Assembly (NCBI GenBank): GCA_028709785.1
Contig: JAQUTK010000010.1
Coordinates: forward strand, 29,467 to 93,466
Length of the DNA stretch: 64,000 nt
Direction of reading: 5' to 3'
Source: Bacteroidales bacterium
GTDB taxonomy: Bacteria; Bacteroidota; Bacteroidia; Bacteroidales; JAQUTK01
This document shows positions 4,211 through 25,428 of the stretch, piece by piece. Position 1 is the stretch's first letter. Every line of letters begins with the position of its first letter. The notes below the pieces were generated by a model. That model searched no databases. It was not told the DNA's origin and saw only the letters and a program-made list of their open reading frames with translations. The position numbers and the translations under genes were made by a program.

Positions 4211-5533
4211 ATGAGAAAAATTTTTTGTTCGCAATGGATGAATCAAATCAGAGTTCTGTCTCTTTCAGCCTTGTGTCTTACCGGACTGGTAAGTTGTGAT
4301 AACGATGATGAAGTAAAAGGGGGTGATGATGAAAAAATTGTGCTCACGATGGCAAGCTGGCGTGTTGAAGACGTTGCTCAGATGAACCGTATCAATGCCC
4401 TTTTTACCCAAAAGCACCCGAATATAACCATTCAGTTTGAGGCGGTTGTTCCAGAAGTGTTTGACAGTGTCAATCTAAGTAAGTTTGCTGAAGGCAAAGG
4501 TGCCGATATCGTCTTTCTTCGTTCGTATGATAAAGGAAGTGCACTCTACGATCGGGGCTATCTCTGTGACCTGACCAATGTAATCCCTAACCTGGATGCC
4601 TACAATCCAACCTATGTAGATGCATGGTCCTCGGACAATGGTGTTACCTACGGAGTACCTTCGGTTGGAGTTACGCAAGGTATTTACTACAACAAGGCTA
4701 TCTTTGCGCAATACAATCTGACCGAACCGACCACATGGGATCAGTTGATGACGATCTGCGAAACACTCCGTACTGCGGGTGTCACACCTTTTGCACAGGG
4801 AGGCGCTGATACCTGGACACTTTACGAAAATATCTATTCCGGTCTGGGTGCCAATTTCTACGGAGGTGAGCTTGGCAGACAAGCGCTCATGGAAGGCACA
4901 GAAACGGTGACAAATACCGATTTTGTGGATGCCTTCGTTATGCTGGATAATTTGACAATCTATTTCCCGGACAATTTCATCGACATGGGATATGAAGATT
5001 TGCGCGCTCAGTTTGCAGAAGGCGATTACGCGATGTTGATCAGCGGATCCTGGGAGATCGCTGTTTTGGAACAAATGGGAGCCGATACCACAAAGATTGG
5101 CTGGTTTCCCGCACCGGTTAAGGAGGAAGGAGACAAACTTCAGTACTGCTATCACGTAGATGCAGGTATCGGAGTCAATAAAAACACCAAGCATATGCAG
5201 GCTGCCCTTGAGTATATCAAATGGGTATCTGGCACAGAATATGCGGAGAATATAATGAAAGAGCTTCCGGGTTTCTTCTCTTACACACCGGGTGTGACAG
5301 TAACACCAACTCATCCGCTGGCAAAGGAAATGTATGCTCTGATTGCAACATCTGATCTTACTGTCCGTACGATGTGTCAGGATCTGAGCACATCAACAGG
5401 CTCGGGTGACGCATTGATGGGAGCGGTGCTACGCGATATGCTGAAAGGTACCTATACGCCTCAGCAAGCAGCCAATTATGTGGAGAGTCAGTTGGAGACA
5501 AGACTTCAGCTCTCACCTTACGCATTAAAGTAA
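4211..5533 (+). CDS. family-1 extracellular solute-binding protein (sugar ABC-type SBP), lipoprotein
   Basis: Lipobox LTGLVSC follows a signal peptide. The length (~440 aa) and the motifs DIVFLRSYD, GVPSVGVTQGIYYNK and LISGSWE are typical of the SBP_bac_1 family. ATG 4211 is preferred over TTG 4202. Confidence 0.7.
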   Translation: MRKIFCSQWMNQIRVLSLSALCLTGLVSCDNDDEVKGGDDEKIVLTMASWRVEDVAQMNRINALFTQKHPNITIQFEAVVPEVFDSVNLSKFAEGKGADIVFLRSYDKGSALYDRGYLCDLTNVIPNLDAYNPTYVDAWSSDNGVTYGVPSVGVTQGIYYNKAIFAQYNLTEPTTWDQLMTICETLRTAGVTPFAQGGADTWTLYENIYSGLGANFYGGELGRQALMEGTETVTNTDFVDAFVMLDNLTIYFPDNFIDMGYEDLRAQFAEGDYAMLISGSWEIAVLEQMGADTTKIGWFPAPVKEEGDKLQYCYHVDAGIGVNKNTKHMQAALEYIKWVSGTEYAENIMKELPGFFSYTPGVTVTPTHPLAKEMYALIATSDLTVRTMCQDLSTSTGSGDALMGAVLRDMLKGTYTPQQAANYVESQLETRLQLSPYALK

Positions 5534-15083: not shown

Positions 15084-15635
15084 AATGGTATTCAAAAGTT
15101 CTTTTCATACAGATCTCTGGACTCGAAAAAACAACAGAATGGCAAAACCTACAAACAAATGAACTGCTTGTAGCGTATGATCACAATCGGTGTTTTAGAA
15201 CAATTCGCCCTACCTTAAAGAATGATCAGATTCAACAGAAAAGGATGTTGAGAGACTGGACTCTGTCTTCACTGTCGATTCTGGAGATCTTTATGTGATT
15301 GGTAAATAATGAGTTGTGCTTTCAGAAATTGTATTCTGAAGGGCAATAAATTTCAACCTGAAGAAATTTATATTTTATCAGGTTCGGATGACAAAAAGTA
15401 TTAGATGTTTTTACCAAAACTATTAGAAGATTTTCGGCACTTTTCAGGCCGTTATTTGCGATGAAACCGGATCATACAAATCGGTGTTTTAGAACAATTT
15501 GAAGAATGGCAATACCAAGCATAGTAATGGAAAACTATACCTTAGGAGTGCAATACTTCAGAAAGAGCAGTTCGCCCTTGTGCATTGATCCACGCAAAGG
15601 CATCCGTGATGCGTTTGAAAGTCCTTAAACGAAAA

Positions 15636-16188: not shown

Positions 16189-16254
16189 TGGAAATTCAAT
16201 AGAACATACCGAAGTTGCGATTTCCTGAGTTTGAAGGGGAGTGGAGATTAATCT
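16188..16254 (+). pseudogene. type I restriction-modification specificity subunit (HsdS) N-terminal remnant
   Basis: ATG GAA ATT CAA TAG is followed in frame by NIPKLRFPEFEGEW, the characteristic HsdS N-terminus. It is interrupted by a stop and abuts the recombinase fragment. Confidence 0.45.
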
Positions 16255-16395
16255 TTACACTGGTTACGACACTCGTATGCTACTCATTTATTGGAAACTG
16301 GCACCGATCTTAGATATATACATGAACTATTAGGACATAGAAGCAGTAAAACAACGGAGATTTACACTCACGTTACGTTACGGAAAAAAGTTTAA
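16255..16395 (+). pseudogene. tyrosine recombinase/integrase C-terminal remnant (46 codons)
   Basis: Translates to [46 protein letters not shown]-stop. This is the box II region with the catalytic His and Tyr. No upstream part of the gene exists. Confidence 0.75.
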
Positions 16396-16580: not shown

Positions 16581-17177
16581 ATGATATTTGAAAGAGGACA
16601 TTTTAGCAACAGTAATATTCAAGAATCGTTTATCAACGAATCATTAAGAGACGTAAGGACATTTAGTTCTAAGTCTGCGTATTCGGCAAAACCCACTGTT
16701 TTCTTATCGCATAAACATGATGATTTGAAAGATTTACAAGGATTTATGGGTAAACTTCAAGAATTGGGAGCTAAAGTATATATTGACAGTATGGATAATA
16801 AAATGCCTGACCAAACTTCTGGAGATACTGCTATAAGGATAAAGGAGGTTATTAAATACTGTAATAAATTTATTTTGTTAGCAACAGAAAAAGCGATTGA
16901 ATCATACTGGTGTAATTGGGAGTTAGGAATTGGAGATACGCATAAATTTATTGAGCATATTGCAATTTTACCAATGAAGGAAAGAGGTTTAAATGATTTA
17001 CAGTACAAAGGGAATGAGTATCTCCAAATATATCCAAGAATAGATTATGAAGATGGTACGAATCACTATCGAAATAATGGAGGTATTATCCCCCAAGGAT
17101 ATTATGTTAGTAAACCTATAAATAAAGAGGGCATTAGGTACATTACTTTACTTACAGATTGGTTAAATCAAAAATAA
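16581..17177 (+). CDS. TIR-domain protein (additional ThsB-type sensor of the Thoeris locus)
   Basis: TVFLSHKHDD and FILLATEKAIESYWCNWELG resemble the bacterial TIR beta-A strand and catalytic Glu region. It lies 10 nt upstream of thsA. Confidence 0.7.
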   Translation: MIFERGHFSNSNIQESFINESLRDVRTFSSKSAYSAKPTVFLSHKHDDLKDLQGFMGKLQELGAKVYIDSMDNKMPDQTSGDTAIRIKEVIKYCNKFILLATEKAIESYWCNWELGIGDTHKFIEHIAILPMKERGLNDLQYKGNEYLQIYPRIDYEDGTNHYRNNGGIIPQGYYVSKPINKEGIRYITLLTDWLNQK

Positions 17178-17187
17178 TATAATAAAT

Positions 17188-18627
17188 ATGCCATTTGATA
17201 GAGAAATTGAAGCGTTTATTAAGAACTTTGTTCTAGACCTTTCAGAAAACAATGTAGCTATATTTGCAGGAGCAGGAATGTCCAAAGGAGCTGGGTATGT
17301 CGATTGGTCAGAACTTTTAAATGATATAGCTGAGGAAATAGGATTAAATGTAAAAATTGAAAGTGATTTAATTTCTTTAGCTCAATATCATGTAAATGAA
17401 CGAGGTGGAAAAGCTGGAATAATTAAGAAAATACTACAGGAATTTTCAGAACAAGCAGAACCTTCAGATAATCATAAACTTTTAGCACGATTGCCTATCA
17501 CGACTTATTGGACAACTAATTATGATACACTTATTGAAGATTCTTTAAAAGATGCATTTAAGATTGTAGACATTAAACATCAAGTTGAACAATTATCCAA
17601 TACTAGACCGAAAAGAGATGTTGTTTTGTATAAAATGCATGGTGATGTTCACCACCCAGCTGATGCAATTCTTACAAAGGAACAATATGAATTTTATTAT
17701 AGAACCCATGAGCATTTCATTACAGCTTTAAGTGGCGATTTAATTTCAAAGACATTTCTATTCATTGGTTTTAGTTTTACCGACCCTAATCTTGATTATG
17801 TATTAAGCAGACTAAATTATCAGTTTGGAGATATTAACAAGCAGCATTATTGTTTTATTAAAAAAGAGAGTAAAGAGACAGATGATGATGATGAAGTTTT
17901 CAAATACAAACAAAGAAAACAGAAATTAAGAGTTGATGATTTAAAGCGTTATAGAATTAAAGCACTATTAGTTGATAATTATATCGATATTACAGAGATA
18001 CTTAAAGAAATTGAAAAGCGGTATATAAAGAAAACCATTTTTATATCCGGCAGTGCGGAGGAATATGGCCAATGGGATAGAAACCAAGCCCAATCTTTTG
18101 TTCATACTATGAGTAAAAAGATTGTAACCTCAAATTTTAGAGTTGTAAATGGTTTTGGTTGGGGCATCGGTAGCGCTGTAATTAATGGTGCGTTAGAAGC
18201 TGTTTATGAGAGACCAGATAAATATTCAGAAGACCAATTAATAATAAAACCATTTCCTCAATTTGAAACAGGTGGGAAAAAACTATCCGAACTTTGGGAG
18301 GATTATCGTCAAAGAATGATAGCACTTGCAGGTATTGCTGTTTTTATTTTTGGCAATAAAAGTGATGGGAAAGGAGCCGTTATTCCAGCAAATGGAGTTA
18401 TGAGAGAATTCGAGATTGCTGTTCAGCATGGCTTAATTCCAATTCCGATTGCAGGAACTGGCTATATTACTAATGACATTTACAAAGAGATACTGAAAAG
18501 TCCTGAAAAGTATTATACTGGTATAGAATGGATAATTCCAATTATTAAAGAGCTTGCTTCTGATAAACTAACGGTTGACGAAATAATAAAAAAGGTGCTA
18601 TTCATAATTCAAACAATTAATAAATAA
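17188..18627 (+). CDS. thsA: Thoeris ThsA (N-terminal SIR2 NADase, C-terminal SLOG domain)
   Basis: Colinear by eye with Bacillus cereus ThsA: IFAGAGMSKGAGYVDW, LARLPITTYWTTNYDTLIE, VLYKMHGDVHHP, TFLFIGFSFTDPNLDYVLSR, then the SLOG part IFISGSAEEYGQW...VVNGFGWGIGSAVINGALE. Confidence 0.9.
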   Translation: MPFDREIEAFIKNFVLDLSENNVAIFAGAGMSKGAGYVDWSELLNDIAEEIGLNVKIESDLISLAQYHVNERGGKAGIIKKILQEFSEQAEPSDNHKLLARLPITTYWTTNYDTLIEDSLKDAFKIVDIKHQVEQLSNTRPKRDVVLYKMHGDVHHPADAILTKEQYEFYYRTHEHFITALSGDLISKTFLFIGFSFTDPNLDYVLSRLNYQFGDINKQHYCFIKKESKETDDDDEVFKYKQRKQKLRVDDLKRYRIKALLVDNYIDITEILKEIEKRYIKKTIFISGSAEEYGQWDRNQAQSFVHTMSKKIVTSNFRVVNGFGWGIGSAVINGALEAVYERPDKYSEDQLIIKPFPQFETGGKKLSELWEDYRQRMIALAGIAVFIFGNKSDGKGAVIPANGVMREFEIAVQHGLIPIPIAGTGYITNDIYKEILKSPEKYYTGIEWIIPIIKELASDKLTVDEIIKKVLFIIQTINK

Positions 18628-18631
18628 AGCT

Positions 18632-19120
18632 ATGGCAAGAAAATCATTTTTTAGTTTTCATTTTAAAGGCGATAACTGGCGGGCTGGAATTGTCCGTAAT
18701 AGTTGGGTAACTCAAGATAGAGAAGCTGCTGGTTTCTTTGATTCTGTTGAATGGGAAAAAGTTAAAAAAAAGAATGATAGTGATATTGAGGCTTGGATTG
18801 ATAGTCAATTAAAGGGAACTTCTGTCACAGTAGTTTTAATTGGAGAGAATACCGCAGGTAGAAAATGGATAAATTATGAGATTACAAGCAGCTATAAAAA
18901 AGGAAATGGTCTCTTAGGTATTTATATTCATAATTTAAAAGATAAAGACCAAAAGACAAGTAATAAAGGACGAAGCCCTTTTAGTGATTGGTATGTAGAA
19001 AAGGATGGTAAAAAAGTCTATTTTTCTGACATGTATGATACTTATGATTGGGTTAATGATGATGGTTATAAAAATATGGGTGATTGGATTGAAAAAGCCG
19101 CAAAGAAAGCAGGAAAATAA
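18632..19120 (+). CDS. thsB: Thoeris ThsB (DUF1863/TIR-like)
   Basis: FFSFHFKGDNWRAGIVRNSWVT...AAGFFDSVEWEKVKKK...SVTVVLIGENTAGRKWINYEITSS is colinear with B. cereus ThsB, including the YEI Glu. Confidence 0.9.
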   Translation: MARKSFFSFHFKGDNWRAGIVRNSWVTQDREAAGFFDSVEWEKVKKKNDSDIEAWIDSQLKGTSVTVVLIGENTAGRKWINYEITSSYKKGNGLLGIYIHNLKDKDQKTSNKGRSPFSDWYVEKDGKKVYFSDMYDTYDWVNDDGYKNMGDWIEKAAKKAGK

Positions 19121-19128
19121 ACCCTAGC

Positions 19129-19259
19129 CGTCAACAACGGCTATACCCAATGCGGATTTCAGCGGTTTTGCAAGTTAAGTTCCCGCAGGCAAGGTTTGCA
19201 TCGTGGGATACAGACGCAGCCACGCAATCCCGCACTGGGCATAGCCGCGAACGTATAAG
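19129..19259 (+). repeat. attC-like recombination site 1 (131 bp)
   Basis: Starts with CGTCAAC and ends with GTATAAG. Inner arms GGCTATACCCAATGCGGATT (19139-19158) and AATCCCGCACTGGGCATAGCC (19226-19246) pair with one extra base. It is GC-rich in an AT-rich context. Confidence 0.6.
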
Positions 19260-19280
19260 GCAGTTTTAAAATCACACTAT

Positions 19281-19985
19281 ATGACAGAGAATATAAAGAA
19301 AATTAATAATCCTTTGACAATAATTGCAATATTTGCAGCTCTTGCAGAAATAAATGCAACTGTTTCTTTAGGTTTAATACCAGAAAATCTTCAAGCCATC
19401 TTTATTTGGTTTATTCTAGCATTTCCCACCTTACTTGTCATTTGCTTTTTCTTAACACTTAACTTTAACCCACGAGTAATGTATGCTCCAAGTGATTATA
19501 AAGACGAAAAGAACTTCTTGGATACGATTTCAGGGCGATTTAAAGAAATGCAATTCAATGTAACAAAGGACAATATAATTGAAATTGAGCAGAAATTACA
19601 GGCTGAAAGCATTGACATTTTGGATCGTTATGAGTCAAGCGACATTTCAATTAAGATGTTGAATTATGGAAATAGTTTCTTTTCTGAATTGATTTCCTTG
19701 TTTAAAAATAAACTTGAAGAACATGTATTTGACTCTTTTGGATTTGGAATTCAATCCGAAGATTTGTTTTTATTGTCGATAGTTTTAAATAAACATAGAT
19801 TCCCAAAAAATTTTGCGACTGATCACAATTACATATTGCGATTCACTGAAAAACAAGGTAAAGTTATTGGAGAAATTGCAGGGAAAAATATCAAGAGCGA
19901 CAGTTATAAAACTCTTTCAAAGCAAACCTTTGAATTAATTGAAAAAATGATAAGTCAGAGCATAGTCAAGAAAACCGCCTTATAA
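19281..19985 (+). CDS. hypothetical membrane protein (two N-terminal TM helices plus ~160-aa soluble domain), cassette A cargo
   Basis: Hydrophobic segments LTIIAIFAALAEINATVSLGLI and AIFIWFILAFPTLLVICFFLTL. I recognise no family motif. The stop codon lies inside the next attC-like site. Confidence 0.6.
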   Translation: MTENIKKINNPLTIIAIFAALAEINATVSLGLIPENLQAIFIWFILAFPTLLVICFFLTLNFNPRVMYAPSDYKDEKNFLDTISGRFKEMQFNVTKDNIIEIEQKLQAESIDILDRYESSDISIKMLNYGNSFFSELISLFKNKLEEHVFDSFGFGIQSEDLFLLSIVLNKHRFPKNFATDHNYILRFTEKQGKVIGEIAGKNIKSDSYKTLSKQTFELIEKMISQSIVKKTAL

Positions 19986-20109
19986 CATTAGCTACCCGCA
20001 AGGTCGGCGGCAGTTGGTATTCGGTGGGCATCTTTCCGCTCAAACTGTTTTTCGGCTTGACAGAAAATCTCCCGCAATCCGCCCCTGCGTGTAGCTTCCT
20101 GCGTTACAT
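19980..20109 (+). repeat. attC-like recombination site 2 (130 bp)
   Basis: Starts with TTATAAC (contains the TAA stop of the upstream ORF) and ends with GTTACAT. Arms TAGCTACCCGCAAGGTCGGCGG and CCGCCCCTGCGTGTAGCT pair imperfectly. Confidence 0.6.
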
Positions 20110-20176
20110 GGCATTTAAAGGACAATACCCATAAACTCAACTAATAGTGTTATTATTAATATTAAAATTTTCAGTG

Positions 20177-20752
20177 ATGAGTATTCATCCAACAATTATA
20201 GCTGCTATTATAACAACATCAGGAGCCATTATAACTGCTATAATTACTAAAAAAGAGTGGATTCTATTTTTTGAAAAACCGAAAATTAAATTAGATGGAA
20301 AATGGAAAGGCATATCAATTTATGTTCCTTTAGAAAACGATAACGATTTAGAATGTGTTTATAAAATAAACGCTGATATTGAACAAAAAGGGCGAAGGAT
20401 TAAATTAACTGAGAATATATATGAAATACTTGACTTTAACAACAATGTTCTACGTAAAGAACCGAGGACATTTGTAGGTAAAGGAAAAATAATGAGAGAA
20501 CAAGATATAACTATTGATTTTAATGAAAAGAGAGGCTTGACTTGTGGTGTTATGTATTTGGTATCTGATTATTGGGGTAATGAATTAAAAGGTCTAATGG
20601 CCGTTACTAATCCTTACTGTGGAAAACCTGTCGTTGTTAAGATTCTTTTGAGAAGGGTAGATAAAGAAGATATTAAAGTTGATGATTTAGGATTTAATTA
20701 TCTTAGGCCCATATATACACATTACTTTGACATTAATTCAAATAAAGAATGA
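20177..20752 (+). CDS. hypothetical single-pass membrane-anchored protein, cassette B gene 1
   Basis: N-terminal TM IHPTIIAAIITTSGAIITAIIT is followed by a ~160-aa domain with no motif I recognise. ATG 20177 is preferred over GTG 20147. The stop overlaps the next gene start (ATGA). Confidence 0.55.
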   Translation: MSIHPTIIAAIITTSGAIITAIITKKEWILFFEKPKIKLDGKWKGISIYVPLENDNDLECVYKINADIEQKGRRIKLTENIYEILDFNNNVLRKEPRTFVGKGKIMREQDITIDFNEKRGLTCGVMYLVSDYWGNELKGLMAVTNPYCGKPVVVKILLRRVDKEDIKVDDLGFNYLRPIYTHYFDINSNKE

Positions 20753-21324
20753 GTAATATATTGAAAATAAGAATTTCTGATAAAATACTTCTAAAGCAAA
20801 TTGAGTATATAGATGCCGAGATTATTTTTAAAACAATAAATAGTCAGAGAGAAAGCCTTCGAAAATGGTTGACATTTATAGATACAACAAAAAAAATTGC
20901 AGATACTCAAAAATATATTAAAAGTGTAATTGATGTTCCTGACGAAAATCGTGAGTATATTTTTGTAATATTTTATGATAGTGTTTTTGCTGGTTTAATC
21001 GGTTTTGAAGGAACAAATAAGTACAACAAAAAAACAGAAATTGGTTATTGGCTTTCTGAAGATTATAGAAAAAAAGGGATTGTTACTGAATCTGTCAAGG
21101 GATTAATGAGATTTGCATATAAAGACTTAGAGATTAATAGAATTCAAATTAAATGTGCTGTTGGAAATATTCAGAGTAGTAATATTCCTAAACAACTAGG
21201 TTATAAATTCGAAGGAATTGAACGAGCAGGAGAATTACTTTCAGATGGAACTTTTACTAATGTTGAAGTTTATAGTTTACTAAAGTATGAATTTGATGAT
21301 TTAACAAACAAAAATGCCATGTAA
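20749..21324 (+). CDS. GNAT family N-acetyltransferase (RimJ/RimL-like), cassette B gene 2
   Basis: The EIGYWLSEDYRKKGIVTESVKGLMRFAY acetyl-CoA binding region (R/Q-x-x-G-x-G/A-like RKKG) and overall length match the Acetyltransf_3 type. Confidence 0.8.
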   Translation: MSNILKIRISDKILLKQIEYIDAEIIFKTINSQRESLRKWLTFIDTTKKIADTQKYIKSVIDVPDENREYIFVIFYDSVFAGLIGFEGTNKYNKKTEIGYWLSEDYRKKGIVTESVKGLMRFAYKDLEINRIQIKCAVGNIQSSNIPKQLGYKFEGIERAGELLSDGTFTNVEVYSLLKYEFDDLTNKNAM

Positions 21325-21447
21325 CACGCGGTATATAAAATTGCCGGTTCAGTAGGTTATTTATGAGTTGTAGCTCGCTTCAACTTTTGTGTAACAAGAT
21401 AGGAAATCGCCTGCAATCGGCAACTTTTCATACCGCCGCTGTTGTAC
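21319..21447 (+). repeat. attC-like recombination site 3 (129 bp)
   Basis: Starts with ATGTAAC (contains the GNAT TAA stop) and ends with GTTGTAC. Arms GCGGTATATAAAATTGCCGGTT and AATCGGCAACTTTTCATACCGC pair imperfectly. Confidence 0.6.
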
Positions 21448-21482
21448 GCCATAATAAAAAGCCGAAAACGACCACTTTGATT

Positions 21483-21740
21483 ATGAAGATTAGATTTGCA
21501 AATGGATTGATTGATAAGCTAGAATATAGCAATCATGACGATTATGAGACATATCCGAATTCGGTTTTCATCTGTGATAAATGTGGCGATAAAATTGGAT
21601 TTGCGTATAAGGATTTAGAAAAACATAGATTCTCAAAGAATTCAAATCTAAATGGTAATGATAAAATTATTGCTGATAAATTGATTCTTTCGATGATCCC
21701 AAAGTACAAGATTGAAAAAAAATACAGATTTCGGCATTGA
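21483..21740 (+). CDS. small hypothetical protein with a CxxC knuckle, cassette C (possibly the 5' half of a split gene)
   Basis: ATG 21483 lies just after attC-like site 3. Contains FICDKCGDK. Ends 18 nt after an A8 run (21715-21722). Confidence 0.45.
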   Translation: MKIRFANGLIDKLEYSNHDDYETYPNSVFICDKCGDKIGFAYKDLEKHRFSKNSNLNGNDKIIADKLILSMIPKYKIEKKYRFRH

Positions 21741-21964
21741 CTAATCGAGACAGATTAATCGTAAGGATTCAAAGACTTTATCTAAGAATGATTGGTGTAA
21801 AAGGATTTTTTTTACCAATACCAAAGATTAATGAAAATATTCCAGATTCATATATTGATTATTACTGCCCCAAATGCCAAACACCTATAAGGATTTATTA
21901 TAGTAGTTTTATGGGTGGTAGTCATTGTGAAATAGGTTTTGAAATTAAGTATGTAATGAATTGA
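21737..21964 (+). CDS. small hypothetical protein with a CxxC knuckle, cassette C (possibly the 3' half of a split gene)
   Basis: Only a TTG start is available (TTGA overlap). Contains YYCPKCQTP. This frame would be joined to the upstream ORF by a single extra A in the A8 run. Confidence 0.35.
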   Translation: MTNRDRLIVRIQRLYLRMIGVKGFFLPIPKINENIPDSYIDYYCPKCQTPIRIYYSSFMGGSHCEIGFEIKYVMN

Positions 21965-21967
21965 AAT

Positions 21968-22201
21968 CACTAGTGTCCACTAAATGCTAAAATATTATCC
22001 TATAACCAATTGGATTTATGCAATTTACAAGCGAATTTTTGTGTCCACGATTTGAATTCCCAGATTTACTCCATAAGAAAGAATTGAACCAATCTATATT
22101 GGTAAGTTGGGCTATACCCTATCAAGAGCCTACTCTCGCAAGTGTCTGAGATTGAAGATGAATTTTAATTATGTCTTAATTTCTTTTAGTGGACACTAGT
22201 G
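21968..22201. mobile_element. 234-bp MITE with 17-bp perfect terminal inverted repeats and a 9-bp target-site duplication
   Basis: CACTAGTGTCCACTAAA (21968-21984) and TTTAGTGGACACTAGTG (22185-22201) are exact reverse complements. They are flanked by direct AATTGAAAT at 21959-21967 and 22202-22210. There is no ORF inside, and an internal third GTGTCCAC copy lies near 22041. Confidence 0.8.
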
Positions 22202-22226
22202 AATTGAAATAATAAAAAATTACGGC

Positions 22227-22356
22227 GCACAACACAGTATATACTCCATAGGGGTTTCAGAGGTATGCCAAGTGCATCGCTCGCTGGAAAGGTTTTTACC
22301 AGCGGATAGTGAAGCGTCCACGAAATCCCCTACGTAGCATATACTCAACGTCTATT
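22227..22356 (+). repeat. attC-like recombination site 4 (130 bp)
   Basis: Starts with GCACAAC and ends with GTCTATT. Arms AGTATATACTCCATAGGGGTTT and AAATCCCCTACGTAGCATATACT pair imperfectly with one extra base. Confidence 0.55.
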
Positions 22357-22388
22357 AATGGCAAAGAGAAAAAAAATCACATAATCGC

Positions 22389-22697
22389 ATTTATTACGAT
22401 AATATTTCAAATCTATCTATGGTTGTAAATATCAGCTTAAGCAGGAAAAACTCGCTGTTTTGTGGCAGCCATGCTGGAGCAAAGAGATCGGCATTGATCT
22501 ATTCACTGGCGTGTTCCTGCAGGCTGCACGGAATAAACACCTTCGAATACTTCACAGACGTACTCAATCGGATGACCTCTATCAGCTCGAACGCTTCAGA
22601 CGATAGATATCGGGAGCTTCTTCCAAATTACTGGAAATAGCAAGCGTAAGAAAACGGGCTTTTGAATATTCCTATACGGTATCGTGGAGACGCTTAC
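22389..22697 (+). mobile_element. truncated IS66-family element: 3' end of the transposase gene plus right terminal repeat
   Basis: ISLSRKNSLFCGSHAGAKRSALIYSLACSCRLHGINTFEYFTDVLNRM matches the conserved IS66 TnpC C-terminus. The sequence ends ...GAGACGCTTAC at 22697 (complement of the GTAAGCG IS66 terminus). The rest of the IS is missing. Confidence 0.7.
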
Positions 22698-22779: not shown

Positions 22780-23787
22780 ATGAAAAAGTATTCAATCATC
22801 GTTTTATCAGTAGCTGTAATAGCAGCGCTTTGCTTACTGCTTTACAAAACCTGCAACCGTGCAGAAGGTAACAAACCGGCAGGTTTGACAAAAGTCCGTG
22901 TTCAACTTCAATGGTTTGACGGTACACAATTCATAGGACTTTATATTGCACAAAATAAAAAGTTTTTTGAAGAGGAAGGACTTGATGTCGAACTACTTTC
23001 CGGATCATATTCAATGGACCCTTTTCAAATCGTTAGTGATGGGAGAGCAGATATTGGAATGACAACAGGTGATCGTTTATTAATGCAGTTTGCTGAAAAA
23101 GGAGGTTTAAAAGTACTCGGAACGGTGTTCAATCAAAGCACGGCTTGCTTTATGGCTATGAAAGGAAAAATAGAAACAGTCAATGATTTTAAAGGGAAAA
23201 AAATTGGTGTTTACTCAAACTGTGATACCGATAATATCCTGAGGGCATTACTTCAACTGCATAACATTGACACGAGTGATGTGAATTTTGTTCAGGCTGA
23301 AGACATTGCTGCATTTCGAACCGGCGAAATTGATTTGTTCCCCTCTTATGTTTTCAACGAACCAATAAGAATGGAGCTTGAAGGTATCCAAACGAAGTTA
23401 TTCTTTCCGAAAGATTATGGAGTTACTTTTTATTCTGATATCTATTTTTCAACAGATAAATATTATAAGGATAATAGGGATGTAATCAAACGGTTTTTAA
23501 GAGCATCGGCAAAAGGTTGGGATTATGCAAAGAACAATCAAAAAGAATCGATCAAGACAATGTTTTCTATGTTTAAGAATATGACATTTGACGAGAATCA
23601 TGTCAAGGAGGAAAAGTCTTTGGAGGTAATCTCAACCTATTTGGGTGATGGCAGCGAACATAAAATCAATTATATGCAGCGTGAAAAGTGGCTGGAGATG
23701 GAAGATCTGTTAGTGAAGATTGGGAAGATTAAACAATCTGGTCATGTGGATCAGTTATGCGACTTTAAAATCATTGATGAGCAGTAG
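22780..23787 (+). CDS. NMT1/THI5-like (NitT/TauT-type) substrate-binding protein with an N-terminal membrane anchor
   Basis: VQLQWFDGTQFIGLYIAQNKKFFEEEGLDVELLSG and KIGVYSNCDTDN are typical of the family. No partner permease or ATPase is nearby. Confidence 0.6.
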   Translation: MKKYSIIVLSVAVIAALCLLLYKTCNRAEGNKPAGLTKVRVQLQWFDGTQFIGLYIAQNKKFFEEEGLDVELLSGSYSMDPFQIVSDGRADIGMTTGDRLLMQFAEKGGLKVLGTVFNQSTACFMAMKGKIETVNDFKGKKIGVYSNCDTDNILRALLQLHNIDTSDVNFVQAEDIAAFRTGEIDLFPSYVFNEPIRMELEGIQTKLFFPKDYGVTFYSDIYFSTDKYYKDNRDVIKRFLRASAKGWDYAKNNQKESIKTMFSMFKNMTFDENHVKEEKSLEVISTYLGDGSEHKINYMQREKWLEMEDLLVKIGKIKQSGHVDQLCDFKIIDEQ

Positions 23788-23951: not shown

Positions 23952-23959
23952 TATATTTG
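23952..23959 (+). promoter_or_regulatory. candidate -7 promoter box (TAnnTTTG) of the AbiE operon
   Basis: TATATTTG lies 25 nt upstream of ATG 23984. Confidence 0.4.
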
Positions 23960-23983
23960 CCGACGAATGAACGTAGATTGGAT

Positions 23984-24607
23984 ATGATGACATTATCTGA
24001 AATAGGGAATATACCTGTTGATTTTGCAGTCTTGAAATCGATATTTCCGGATCATAAATCTGTACACAATAAAATCAGTGAGTTGGAAAAGTCTGGAACA
24101 CTTATCAGGCTTAAGAAAGGCATGTACGTACTATCTCCCAAAGAAAGTGGAAAATTAATATCTGTGGAGCTTGTTGCCAATCACCTATACGGACCGTCTT
24201 ACGTTTCGAAGGAGTCGGCTTTACGTTATTACGGACTAATTCCGGAAAGTGTTTATTCTGTTCAATCAATGACTACAAAGCATTCAAGGGTTTTTGTTAA
24301 TTCACTTGGAAAATTTGAATATACACAATGTGAAAAGTCTTATTTTTCAGTTGGTATCAGACAGGAAATAATGGACAATACCTCGTTTCTTATTGCCTGT
24401 CCGGAGAAAGCCTTGTGCGATTTAATCATCCATACACCAAACCTGAATTTGCGTTTTCAGAAAGATATGCTTGCTTATCTGAAAGATGATCTTCGCTTCG
24501 ATATGGATGCTTTCTATCGGATGGATAGTTCTCTTTTTGAGCAATGTGCACAGATGGGAAAGAAAAGGACTGTTATTGAGAATATGATCAAAATCAAACA
24601 ACGATGA
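23984..24607 (+). CDS. type IV toxin-antitoxin system AbiEi-family antitoxin/transcriptional regulator
   Basis: N-terminal winged-helix-like region (KISELEKSGTLIRLKKGMYVL) followed by GPSYVSKESALRYYGLIPE. 4-bp overlap with the AbiEii gene. Confidence 0.75.
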   Translation: MMTLSEIGNIPVDFAVLKSIFPDHKSVHNKISELEKSGTLIRLKKGMYVLSPKESGKLISVELVANHLYGPSYVSKESALRYYGLIPESVYSVQSMTTKHSRVFVNSLGKFEYTQCEKSYFSVGIRQEIMDNTSFLIACPEKALCDLIIHTPNLNLRFQKDMLAYLKDDLRFDMDAFYRMDSSLFEQCAQMGKKRTVIENMIKIKQR

Positions 24608-25428
24608 ACAATATCTTCGAGCAGATGCTCTCGCACTATCAGATAGTTACTGAAAAAGATCGTCGTAATGCTATCTATGAAGTGATGCAACAAATCACAT
24701 TAGCTGGTCTATATCGTGGAGGCTTCTTTAATAAAGCTGCCTTCTATGGAGGCACTTGCTTAAGAATATTTCATCAACTGGAAAGGGCTTCAGAAGATAT
24801 GGATTTTTCGCTTTTAGCTCCTGATAAAGCATTTAAGTTAGATGAATACTTTCCGGCAATCATCGAAGAGTTTAACACCTTGGGGAGAGATGTTGTGATC
24901 ACCAAAAAGAATAAACAAAATTTCGGTAAGGTTGAGTCTGCTTTCTTGAAAGATGACACTGAAGTGTACGATGTCGCATTTCAAACGGAAAGAGGATTAA
25001 AAATAAAAATAGAGGTGGATACTCAACCTCCCTTAATGTTTCAGACCGAACAAAAATTGCTGTTACATCCTTTTTCTTTTATGACACGTTGCTTTACGCT
25101 TCCGGATTTGTATGCTGGAAAGATGCATGCTCTGATTTTCAGAAGTTGGAAGAATCGTGTGAAAGGTCGTGATTGGTATGACTTTGAATGGTATGTAAGA
25201 AAGGGTATTCAATTGGATTTCGTGCATCTTCAAGAGCGTATCCGAGAGTTTAATGGCATTGAAATGGATAAAGAAGAGTTTATCAGATTGCTAAAAGAAC
25301 GGCTAGCCTCTACTGATATTAAAATGGTAAAGCACGATGTTGAACCTTTTATTAAGAATCCGGCTAGCCTTGAAATATGGTCAAATGACTACTTTCTACA
25401 GTTGGCAGATAGGATAAAGTTGGAATAA
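24604..25428 (+). CDS. nucleotidyltransferase AbiEii/AbiGii-family toxin
   Basis: FYGGTCLRIFHQLERASEDMDFS (nucleotidyltransferase GG...D.D region) and GRDWYDFEWY. Paired with the upstream AbiEi. Confidence 0.8.
   Translation: MNNIFEQMLSHYQIVTEKDRRNAIYEVMQQITLAGLYRGGFFNKAAFYGGTCLRIFHQLERASEDMDFSLLAPDKAFKLDEYFPAIIEEFNTLGRDVVITKKNKQNFGKVESAFLKDDTEVYDVAFQTERGLKIKIEVDTQPPLMFQTEQKLLLHPFSFMTRCFTLPDLYAGKMHALIFRSWKNRVKGRDWYDFEWYVRKGIQLDFVHLQERIREFNGIEMDKEEFIRLLKERLASTDIKMVKHDVEPFIKNPASLEIWSNDYFLQLADRIKLE

Follow-up and report, generated by a model that had tools for sequence, protein, structure and literature searches.

What is a gene for a very rare membrane-anchored barrel protein doing directly in front of, and overlapping with, a gene for an acetyltransferase of a common type? 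The question is raised by a 64,000-nucleotide (nt) stretch of DNA from a Bacteroidales bacterium (GenBank assembly GCA_028709785.1, contig JAQUTK010000010.1, positions 29,467 to 93,466 of the forward strand), which is referred to as the window below. Two genes, each coding for a protein of 191 amino acids (aa), share a cassette at positions 20104..21441 on the + strand of the window. Gene 1 encodes a protein with an N-terminal transmembrane (TM) helix, and gene 2 encodes a GCN5-related N-acetyltransferase (GNAT). A sequence-only reading of the window had put the pair forward as a candidate two-gene module, which could be of a toxin/immunity or defence type, or could equally consist of an accessory protein and an enzyme for modification or resistance. 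The last of these is the reading we now favour, with a probability of about 0.35. It was strengthened by the finding that barrel and GNAT genes are also adjacent in the nearest barrel clade, and weakened by indirect signs that the link between the two is not obligatory.

According to the favoured reading, the pair would form a module that protects by N-acetylation, in which the enzyme has a ligand-binding partner tethered to the membrane. Barrel and GNAT would be made together from one transcript. The product of gene 1 would be the accessory part, with a signal-anchor helix that holds the barrel at the inner membrane, on the cytoplasmic side, where the barrel may bind, concentrate or sense an amine-bearing compound. 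The product of gene 2 would be the catalytic part, an acetyl-CoA-dependent N-acetyltransferase that would neutralise or modify this compound, a small molecule or possibly a peptide, by N-acetylation. Such a module would be non-addictive, and of a detoxification or resistance type. A module is suggested by the overlap of the two genes and their shared cassette, by the recurrence of the pair in the nearest clade, by the ligand-binding fold of the barrel, the occurrence of an HTH_3 domain in one family member and the cytoplasmic charge pattern of the family, as well as by the kinship of the enzyme with YdaF, MccE and RimL and the existence of solo GNATs.

The two-gene cassette and its attC-like sites

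Gene 1 (20177..20752) and gene 2 (20749..21324) are both located on the + strand. Their open reading frames (ORFs) share an ATGA tetranucleotide (20749..20752, + strand), in which the ATG start codon of gene 2 (20749-20751) lies over the TGA stop codon of gene 1 (20750-20752), just as the sequence-only reading had it. The overlap suggests that translation of the two genes may be coupled. An alternative start codon for gene 1 is present upstream, at 20147. Since homologous proteins begin 3-11 residues before their hydrophobic segment, the ATG at 20177 is the likely start. The GC content is 27-31% over the gene pair. Beyond the stretch from 16.5 to 22 kb it is 38-48%, and this stretch is therefore compositionally foreign.

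Structured hairpins resembling the attC sites of integrons were found on either side of the pair, which supports the placement of both genes in one cassette. Four such sites, all on the + strand, are present within 3.3 kb, and every ORF between them is on the + strand as well. Site A (19126..19264) ends a cassette coding for a Thoeris system. Site B (19978..20114) is located at the 3′ end of the cassette that precedes the pair, site C (21317..21452) belongs to the pair itself, and site D (22225..22361), the last of the array, ends a cassette with two Cys-rich ORFs. Site B sets the 5′ boundary of the cassette of the pair (cassette B), which extends on the + strand from the TT of the R′-like box GTTACAT in site B to the G of GTTGTAC in its own site C; positions 20104 and 21441 thus correspond to the junctions between G and TT in sites B and C. 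The TAA stop codon of gene 2 is located inside the R″-like box of site C (ATGTAAC), and in two of the four cassettes a stop codon falls within the 5′ box.

The four attC-like sites, each of ~135 nt, have little sequence identity and a common long imperfect hairpin. A 15-pair stem is 91.7% paired over the four sites, with compensatory double changes at 11 of the 15 pairs. None of 500 shuffles reached the observed stem values, and in a control where the partners were slid by 1-3 columns pairing was only 24-43%. In the 5′ boxes AAC(A) is invariant, and in the 3′ boxes the initial GT is (n = 4 sites); two of the four 3′ boxes begin with GTA or GTC, a departure from the canonical GTT of attC. In three of the four sites, folding is more favourable for the bottom strand than for the top one. 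As in integron cassettes, therefore, a 3′ hairpin with R″/R′ boxes is present, and at least two attC sites are co-oriented and less than 4 kb apart. The attC calls are based on structure, boxes and a covariance model of the four sites, rather than on the curated IntegronFinder model. No known RNA family from Rfam was detected in the intergenic hairpins.

A remnant of the C-terminal part of a tyrosine recombinase, ~47 codons long, was revealed by a motif scan in six frames at 16252..16395 (+ strand), ~200 bp upstream of the first cassette. It has the same orientation as the cassettes and is too short to be assigned as IntI. This 47-codon fragment was the only recombinase trace that the six-frame scan detected in the window, and an intact integron integrase with attI was not found there. 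Upstream of the remnant, a 32-nt direct repeat, 84% identical, is present in non-coding DNA (15174-15205 and 15468-15499, 294 nt apart). The array is best called a decayed chromosomal integron, or a cluster of attC sites with only an integrase remnant. Cassette B is a real cassette of the integron type, with two co-oriented, overlapping genes. Acetyltransferases rank among the functions most often reported for integron cassettes, and integrons do occur in Bacteroidota (PMC8618304).

The membrane-anchored barrel and the acetyltransferase

The product of gene 1 matched no entry of Pfam, NCBIfam, PADLOC, PHROGs or the sequences in PDB. No match was obtained when it was compared by tblastn with 72,556 plasmids and 50,697 phages, or in two viral-contig scans and a first scan of genome contigs. 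The family is very rare: it makes up 5 clusters among 5.8 billion proteins, and 29 representatives were retrieved when 1.84 billion were searched exhaustively with a profile. An AlphaFold model calculated from a 25-sequence alignment (mean predicted confidence, pLDDT, 92.9) consists of a helix at residues 4-32 (20186..20272, + strand), eight strands at residues 41-160 (20297..20656, + strand) that form an up-and-down β-barrel, and a C-terminal helix. The most hydrophobic 19-residue window of the N-terminal helix, residues 6-24, corresponds to the TM anchor, in agreement with the single N-terminal TM helix proposed earlier. In a Foldseek search with the model, the best PDB matches were de novo eight-strand barrels (target-normalised TM-score 0.70-0.77); many lipocalins, nitrophorins and retinol-binding proteins came next. 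The modelled fold is thus that of a lipocalin/calycin-like barrel, a ligand-binding fold, with the likeness confined to the level of the fold; there was no sequence-level match between gene 1 and the lipocalin families. The soluble domain, which had been described as unrecognisable, remains so for sequence libraries, but its fold is now defined by the AlphaFold and Foldseek comparison that had been proposed as a check. Within the family, residues W43, G45, S47, E59, R97 and G103 are invariant, and G41, Q70, E79 and E117 nearly so.

Each of 24 family members contains one hydrophobic window. Its N-terminal flank is short, and neutral or acidic in 23 of the 24 proteins, and its C-terminal flank contains 1-6 Lys/Arg residues. 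According to the positive-inside rule, the basic flank of a TM helix faces the cytoplasm. The flanking charges therefore place the barrel on the cytoplasmic side, and the topology of the gene 1 protein is probably N-out/C-in. In one family member (P0029, locus L011) a DNA-binding HTH_3 domain is present in place of the TM helix, a fusion that fits a cytoplasmic ligand-sensing role for the barrel. The idea that a longer member might be a natural fusion of barrel and neighbour (a Rosetta-stone protein) was considered and rejected: in P0009, a member of 359 aa, the C-terminal extension is dissimilar to the neighbour of P0010 and has no Pfam match.

Gene 2 codes for a GNAT of the RimJ/RimL/YdaF/MccE type. 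Its product matched the Pfam family Acetyltransf_3 over the entire model (positions 2-138 of 138) with an E-value of 1.6e-21 and a score of 77.8 bits (cut-off 25.4); the domain match covers residues 13-153, and Acetyltransf_4 and Acetyltransf_1 were matched too. The closest relatives with solved structures are Bacillus subtilis YdaF (1nsl, 3.3e-26), the microcin C resistance domain MccE (3.4e-16) and Salmonella RimL (1.1e-14). Members of the RimL/YdaF/MccE clade acetylate primary amines, either at the N-termini of proteins or in small molecules that bear an amino acid, for example processed microcin C. The sequence-only reading had considered that the enzyme might cluster with ribosomal-protein acetyltransferases. 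In one respect it does: several sources label the large family of gene 2 as ribosomal-protein-serine acetyltransferases, and RimL is its best NCBIfam match (1.8e-25). However, the score against the RimL equivalog model NF007539 is 89.6 bits versus a cut-off of 184, and that for RimJ is 26.4 versus 190. No PADLOC model was matched by gene 2.

At E ≤ 1e-20 the enzyme has 949 homologues, and identity reaches 61-67% for the best of them; named examples, at 53-61% identity, include proteins of Bacteroides, Marinilabiliaceae, Mesonia and Fermentimonas. Three of the closest relatives (61-67%) have chromosomal surroundings of an ordinary kind: one is next to a staphylococcal-nuclease-like gene, another next to a flavodoxin-like gene, and the third between two other GNATs beside a TetR/efflux operon. 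A hidden Markov model (HMM) of the barrel family detected no barrel ORF at any of these three loci. Thus, the clade of gene 2 is common in Bacteroidota, appears to be solo in every context sampled (n = 3) and is presumably harmless. Because the near relatives are solo in all three contexts, the enzyme is probably not toxic by itself.

Distribution of the pair and readings of its function

The members of the barrel family nearest to gene 1 (46-49% identity) come from another lineage and are represented by five contigs, L001-L004 and L022. In all five the gene order is the same: a gene for a 369-aa FRG-domain protein is followed by the barrel gene and, after a 4-nt gap, by an Acetyltransf_3 GNAT gene (the trio occupies positions 6863-9126 of L001, 4825-7066 of L022 and 1250-3490 of L002). 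A barrel gene followed by a GNAT gene of this family is therefore found as a neighbouring pair elsewhere, and the genomic context is different: loci of the L001 type are surrounded by a caspase-like gene and several genes for secreted-looking proteins. When the window and L001-L018 were searched with the covariance model of the four attC-like sites, no further copy was found, and the pair in L001-L004 is hence not in a cassette of this type. The GNAT gene is intact in L001 and L022. Recurrent tight adjacency in the nearest barrel clade suggests that the two proteins may cooperate.

Several observations weigh against protective acetylation by a coupled pair. The DNA of L001 and L002 is mosaic: the FRG and barrel genes are 89-93% identical, while the GNAT genes are only 63-70% identical, and the drop in identity is abrupt, beginning 110 nt before the end of the barrel gene and continuing through the GNAT gene. 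In L002 the GNAT gene is frameshifted by a 1-nt deletion, which is also present in an independent assembly, L003, and the barrel gene is intact. A frameshifted GNAT beside an intact barrel implies that the GNAT is dispensable in L002/L003. The pairing is known in two independent lineages only. The GNATs of L001 and of the window are 44% identical to each other, whereas the window GNAT is 61-67% identical to solo GNATs. A sister relation of the two barrel-linked GNATs was rejected, as the L001 GNAT is about equally far (about 40-46% identity) from all 120 top relatives, which are solo GNATs, and the window GNAT ranks only fifth. Both the coupling of barrel and GNAT, physical or functional, and the nature of the substrate are matters that we infer, and a neighbourhood with Thoeris and AbiE suits defence as well as detoxification.

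More distant barrels, at 29-41% identity, also weigh on this side, since their neighbours are unrelated to GNATs. A barrel gene is overlapped by a gene for a caspase-AAA_16-WD40 protein in L005/L006, and is located by genes for an FkbM-type methyltransferase in L007, a PALP enzyme in L008, Thi4 in L009, a multi-TM protein in L019 and, together with phage-like genes, a radical-SAM protein in L023; in L011 the HTH-barrel fusion stands alone on a plasmid-like contig. The varied neighbours imply that the barrel has no obligatory enzyme partner. Taken with the solo GNATs, they provide indirect indications that neither gene needs the other to be tolerated. Two of these contigs have features of their own. 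In L005 (739-5564), the caspase gene codes for a conflict-system-like 1427-aa protein with Peptidase_C14, AAA_16 and WD40 domains, and its 3′ end overlaps the start of the barrel gene by 22 nt. L011, which also carries a resolvase, ParA and IS1, contains (at 110-847 and 4459-5278) both the HTH_3-barrel gene and a canonical TacA1-GNAT toxin-antitoxin pair.

The main alternative, which we consider possible but unlikely, is that gene 1 codes for a membrane-disrupting effector similar to Cap15/OptE (the S-2TMβ family) or to type II ThsA. Such an effector would be gated by a nucleotide-derived ligand in its barrel, and the GNAT would act either on the ligand, which it would quench or produce by N-acetylation, or on the effector, which it would modify. 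Cap15 and OptE span the membrane twice, bind nucleotides in a β-barrel and act by disrupting the membrane, and in Panoptes an enzyme is paired with a TM-β-barrel protein and the enzyme product acts as an “antitoxin” (PMC12657218, PMC12657230). The layout of gene 1 is S-2TMβ-like: a TM segment is followed by a short basic linker and a ~125-aa β-barrel that opens with L-N/S-G-x-W-x-G (DLNGTWEG in VnOptE). In two family members, the TM segment and first strands gave weak PADLOC matches (E 0.0018-0.018) to the “2TM effector” models of the cyclic-oligonucleotide-based antiphage signalling system (CBASS). Conflict-type neighbours fit as well: an FRG protein is encoded directly upstream in L001-L004 and L022, the caspase-AAA_16-WD40 protein overlaps the barrel in L005/L006, and in the window a Thoeris system is located two cassettes upstream and AbiE downstream. 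The FRG domain has been described as a candidate NADase or signal generator of prokaryotic immunity that belongs to the ADP-ribosyltransferase (ART) superfamily (PMC9503650). If gene 1 were an effector, its signal would come from the upstream FRG protein in the L001/L022 lineage, and the window cassette may rely on signals from other systems, for example those of the Thoeris TIR proteins.

Direct comparisons with S-2TMβ proteins, however, gave little. No Pfam match of the S-2TMβ/Cap15 type was detected in any of 25 family members at E ≤ 1, an hhalign comparison with OptE-type sequences aligned just 8 columns at a probability of 1.6-2.7%, and the family HMM scored 0.7 bits against VnOptE. The best 50 of 1476 Foldseek PDB matches at E ≤ 10 did not include Cap15, and gene 1 has one TM helix where S-2TMβ proteins have two. 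Membership in S-2TMβ is thus not claimed: with VnOptE and a Sulfitobacter homologue, only an 8-residue GxWxG motif could be aligned by hhalign and hmmsearch. The cassette contains no gene for a nucleotide cyclase, TIR or ART protein, no FRG was found in the window, and the GNAT has no PADLOC match. The intact barrel next to a frameshifted GNAT speaks against a GNAT that silences a toxic effector, and several of the barrel contexts look metabolic. In the course of this comparison we observed an operon of Panoptes type, mCpol followed by OptE, on a Sulfitobacter plasmid (NZ_CP072616.1; L024, 1133-2115 and 3096-3612), with a gene annotated as a DncV-like nucleotidyltransferase ~1 kb away. Linkage of Panoptes and CBASS has been published, and the L024 layout agrees with it.

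Equally unlikely, in our estimate, is the absence of any functional link between the two genes. Their adjacency would then be due to chance, for example to the fusion of two cassettes after loss of an attC site, or to insertion of a barrel gene upstream of a common GNAT gene. The GNAT clade is overwhelmingly without the barrel, the barrel has many different neighbours, the paired GNATs are not sisters, and a recombination breakpoint separates L001 and L002 near the junction of the two genes, all of which agrees with chance. What chance explains poorly is the tight spacing: the two genes overlap by 4 nt (ATGA) in the window, and 4 nt separate them in the other lineage. Moreover, a barrel as rare as this one (29 representatives per 1.84e9) is found directly upstream of Acetyltransf_3 in both lineages of the nearest clade whose context is known, which would be hard to obtain by chance, and more so if the origins were independent.

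Two further possibilities appear improbable. The first is a variant in which the TM-barrel family would be a new class of one-TM ligand-gated membrane effectors or sensors, analogous to Cap15/OptE and type II ThsA, that respond to an amino-acid-bearing NAD-derived signal, with Nα-acetylation of the signal by the GNAT as the means of control. The source of the signal could be the FRG enzyme in L001/L022 and perhaps the Thoeris TIR proteins in the window. The parallel for such an acetylation switch is MccE, which acetylates an aminoacyl-nucleotide. The second, of about the same low standing, is that the GNAT Nα-acetylates the barrel itself or a membrane-proximal protein recruited by the barrel, in the manner of RimL and RimJ acting on ribosomal proteins. 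RimL is the best NCBIfam match and RimL structures are among the PDB matches, and co-translation would bring the enzyme and its candidate substrate together. The score far below the RimL equivalog cut-off argues against this, as do the predicted location of the barrel N-terminus outside the cytoplasm, beyond the reach of a cytoplasmic GNAT, and the solo GNAT relatives, which must have other substrates. The weakest explanation, a toxin-antitoxin or immunity pair that stabilises the cassette array, with either gene as the toxin, would account for the overlapping genes and accord with the report that two-gene integron cassettes are very often toxin-antitoxin systems (10.1101/2024.07.02.601686), but the toxin/immunity module suggested earlier is very improbable given that the GNAT is not of the TacT/AtaT type and has no ribbon-helix-helix (RHH)/DUF1778 partner, that its relatives at 61-67% identity lack a barrel in three of three contexts, that two assemblies have an intact barrel next to a GNAT with a frameshift, and that distant barrels occur without any GNAT.

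Neighbouring cassettes and relation to known systems

The first cassette of the array codes for a complete type I Thoeris system, identified by library matches: ThsB (16581-17177), ThsA with SIR2 and STALD domains (17188-18627) and a second ThsB (18632-19120). It starts ~200 bp after the recombinase remnant, ends in site A and, at ~2.7 kb, is unusually large. The pair had been placed next to Thoeris. The two belong to the same array, but they are not immediately adjacent, for a cassette at 19281..19985 (+ strand) with a gene for a 234-aa membrane protein stands between them. This protein has a hydrophobic N-terminal region, and its first 100 residues match PHROG 26238, of unknown function (4.8e-21); no match was found in Pfam or PADLOC. 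The cassette after the pair contains two overlapping small ORFs rich in Cys (CxxC pairs) at 21483-21740 and 21737-21964 on the + strand. Before site D, inverted repeats of 29 nt (21956-21984 and 22185-22213), 86% complementary and 200 nt apart, could represent a small insertion similar to a miniature inverted-repeat transposable element. Directly after site D there is a C-terminal fragment of an IS66-family transposase (22419-22640, 8e-08), and the insertion sequence may have shortened the attC array. It is followed by a 335-aa ORF (22780-23787) and by overlapping genes for AbiEi and AbiEii (23957-25428; PADLOC 2e-71 and 2e-115), so the AbiE pair reported downstream of the cassette is indeed there.

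What is new at this locus is an unannotated, very rare TM-anchored lipocalin-like barrel and a recurrent arrangement of barrel and GNAT of which we found no description; the GNAT family and acetyltransferase cargo are known. If the two genes form a functional unit, a very large family of RimL/MccE-type enzymes would gain a new accessory partner, and the unannotated barrel family its first functional handle. If they are merely a detoxifying acetyltransferase and its helper, the pair would be ordinary cassette cargo. Were the barrel a Cap15-like effector under the control of acetylation, the signalling logic would be new, with an acetylation switch unprecedented in bacterial immunity. The array itself, a decayed integron-like structure in a Bacteroidales genome that begins with a cassette for a complete type I Thoeris system, fits recent reports of integron cassettes that store defence genes.

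Five groups of known systems resemble parts of the locus. As in integron arrays and in clusters of attC sites lacking integron-integrases (CALINs), the genes are co-oriented, each group is followed by an imperfect hairpin conserved in structure and not in sequence, the 5′ box contains AAC, the 3′ box starts with GT, and an acetyltransferase is among the cargo; the differences from an integron are the lack of an intact integrase and the two 3′ boxes with GTA/GTC. The operons TacAT, AtaRT and KacAT also have a GNAT in an overlapping two-gene operon on an element of mobile type. Their GNATs are of another clade, and the upstream partner here is a 191-aa membrane β-barrel protein instead of a small RHH/DUF1778 antitoxin. 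An architecture of a TM β-barrel upstream of an Acetyltransf_3 GNAT, with no RHH/DUF1778 protein, is thus unlike TacT/AtaT, as had been recognised from the outset.

The barrel invites two comparisons. Lipocalins have the same eight-stranded up-and-down barrel; the alignment of the gene 1 family shows a G-x-W in the first strand and a basic residue in the last, both reminiscent of lipocalin signature regions. The barrel of gene 1 differs in being cytoplasmic, as predicted from the flanking charges, and TM-anchored, rather than secreted or lipidated. Cap15 and OptE are likewise small (~190-200 aa) inner-membrane proteins with a TM segment, a basic linker and a cytoplasmic β-barrel, and are likewise encoded in an enzyme-plus-effector gene pair. 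The partner of gene 1, in contrast, is a GNAT, and not a synthase of a nucleotide signal (CD-NTase or mCpol).

The enzyme is closest to RimL, YdaF and MccE. Gene 2 differs from them in scoring below the RimL/RimJ cut-offs, in being carried by a cassette and in overlapping a membrane protein gene; we know of no partner gene of this kind for RimL, YdaF or MccE. It shares with them the whole of the catalytic domain, and the chemistry to be expected of it is the same, acetyl-CoA-dependent N-acetylation of a primary amine.

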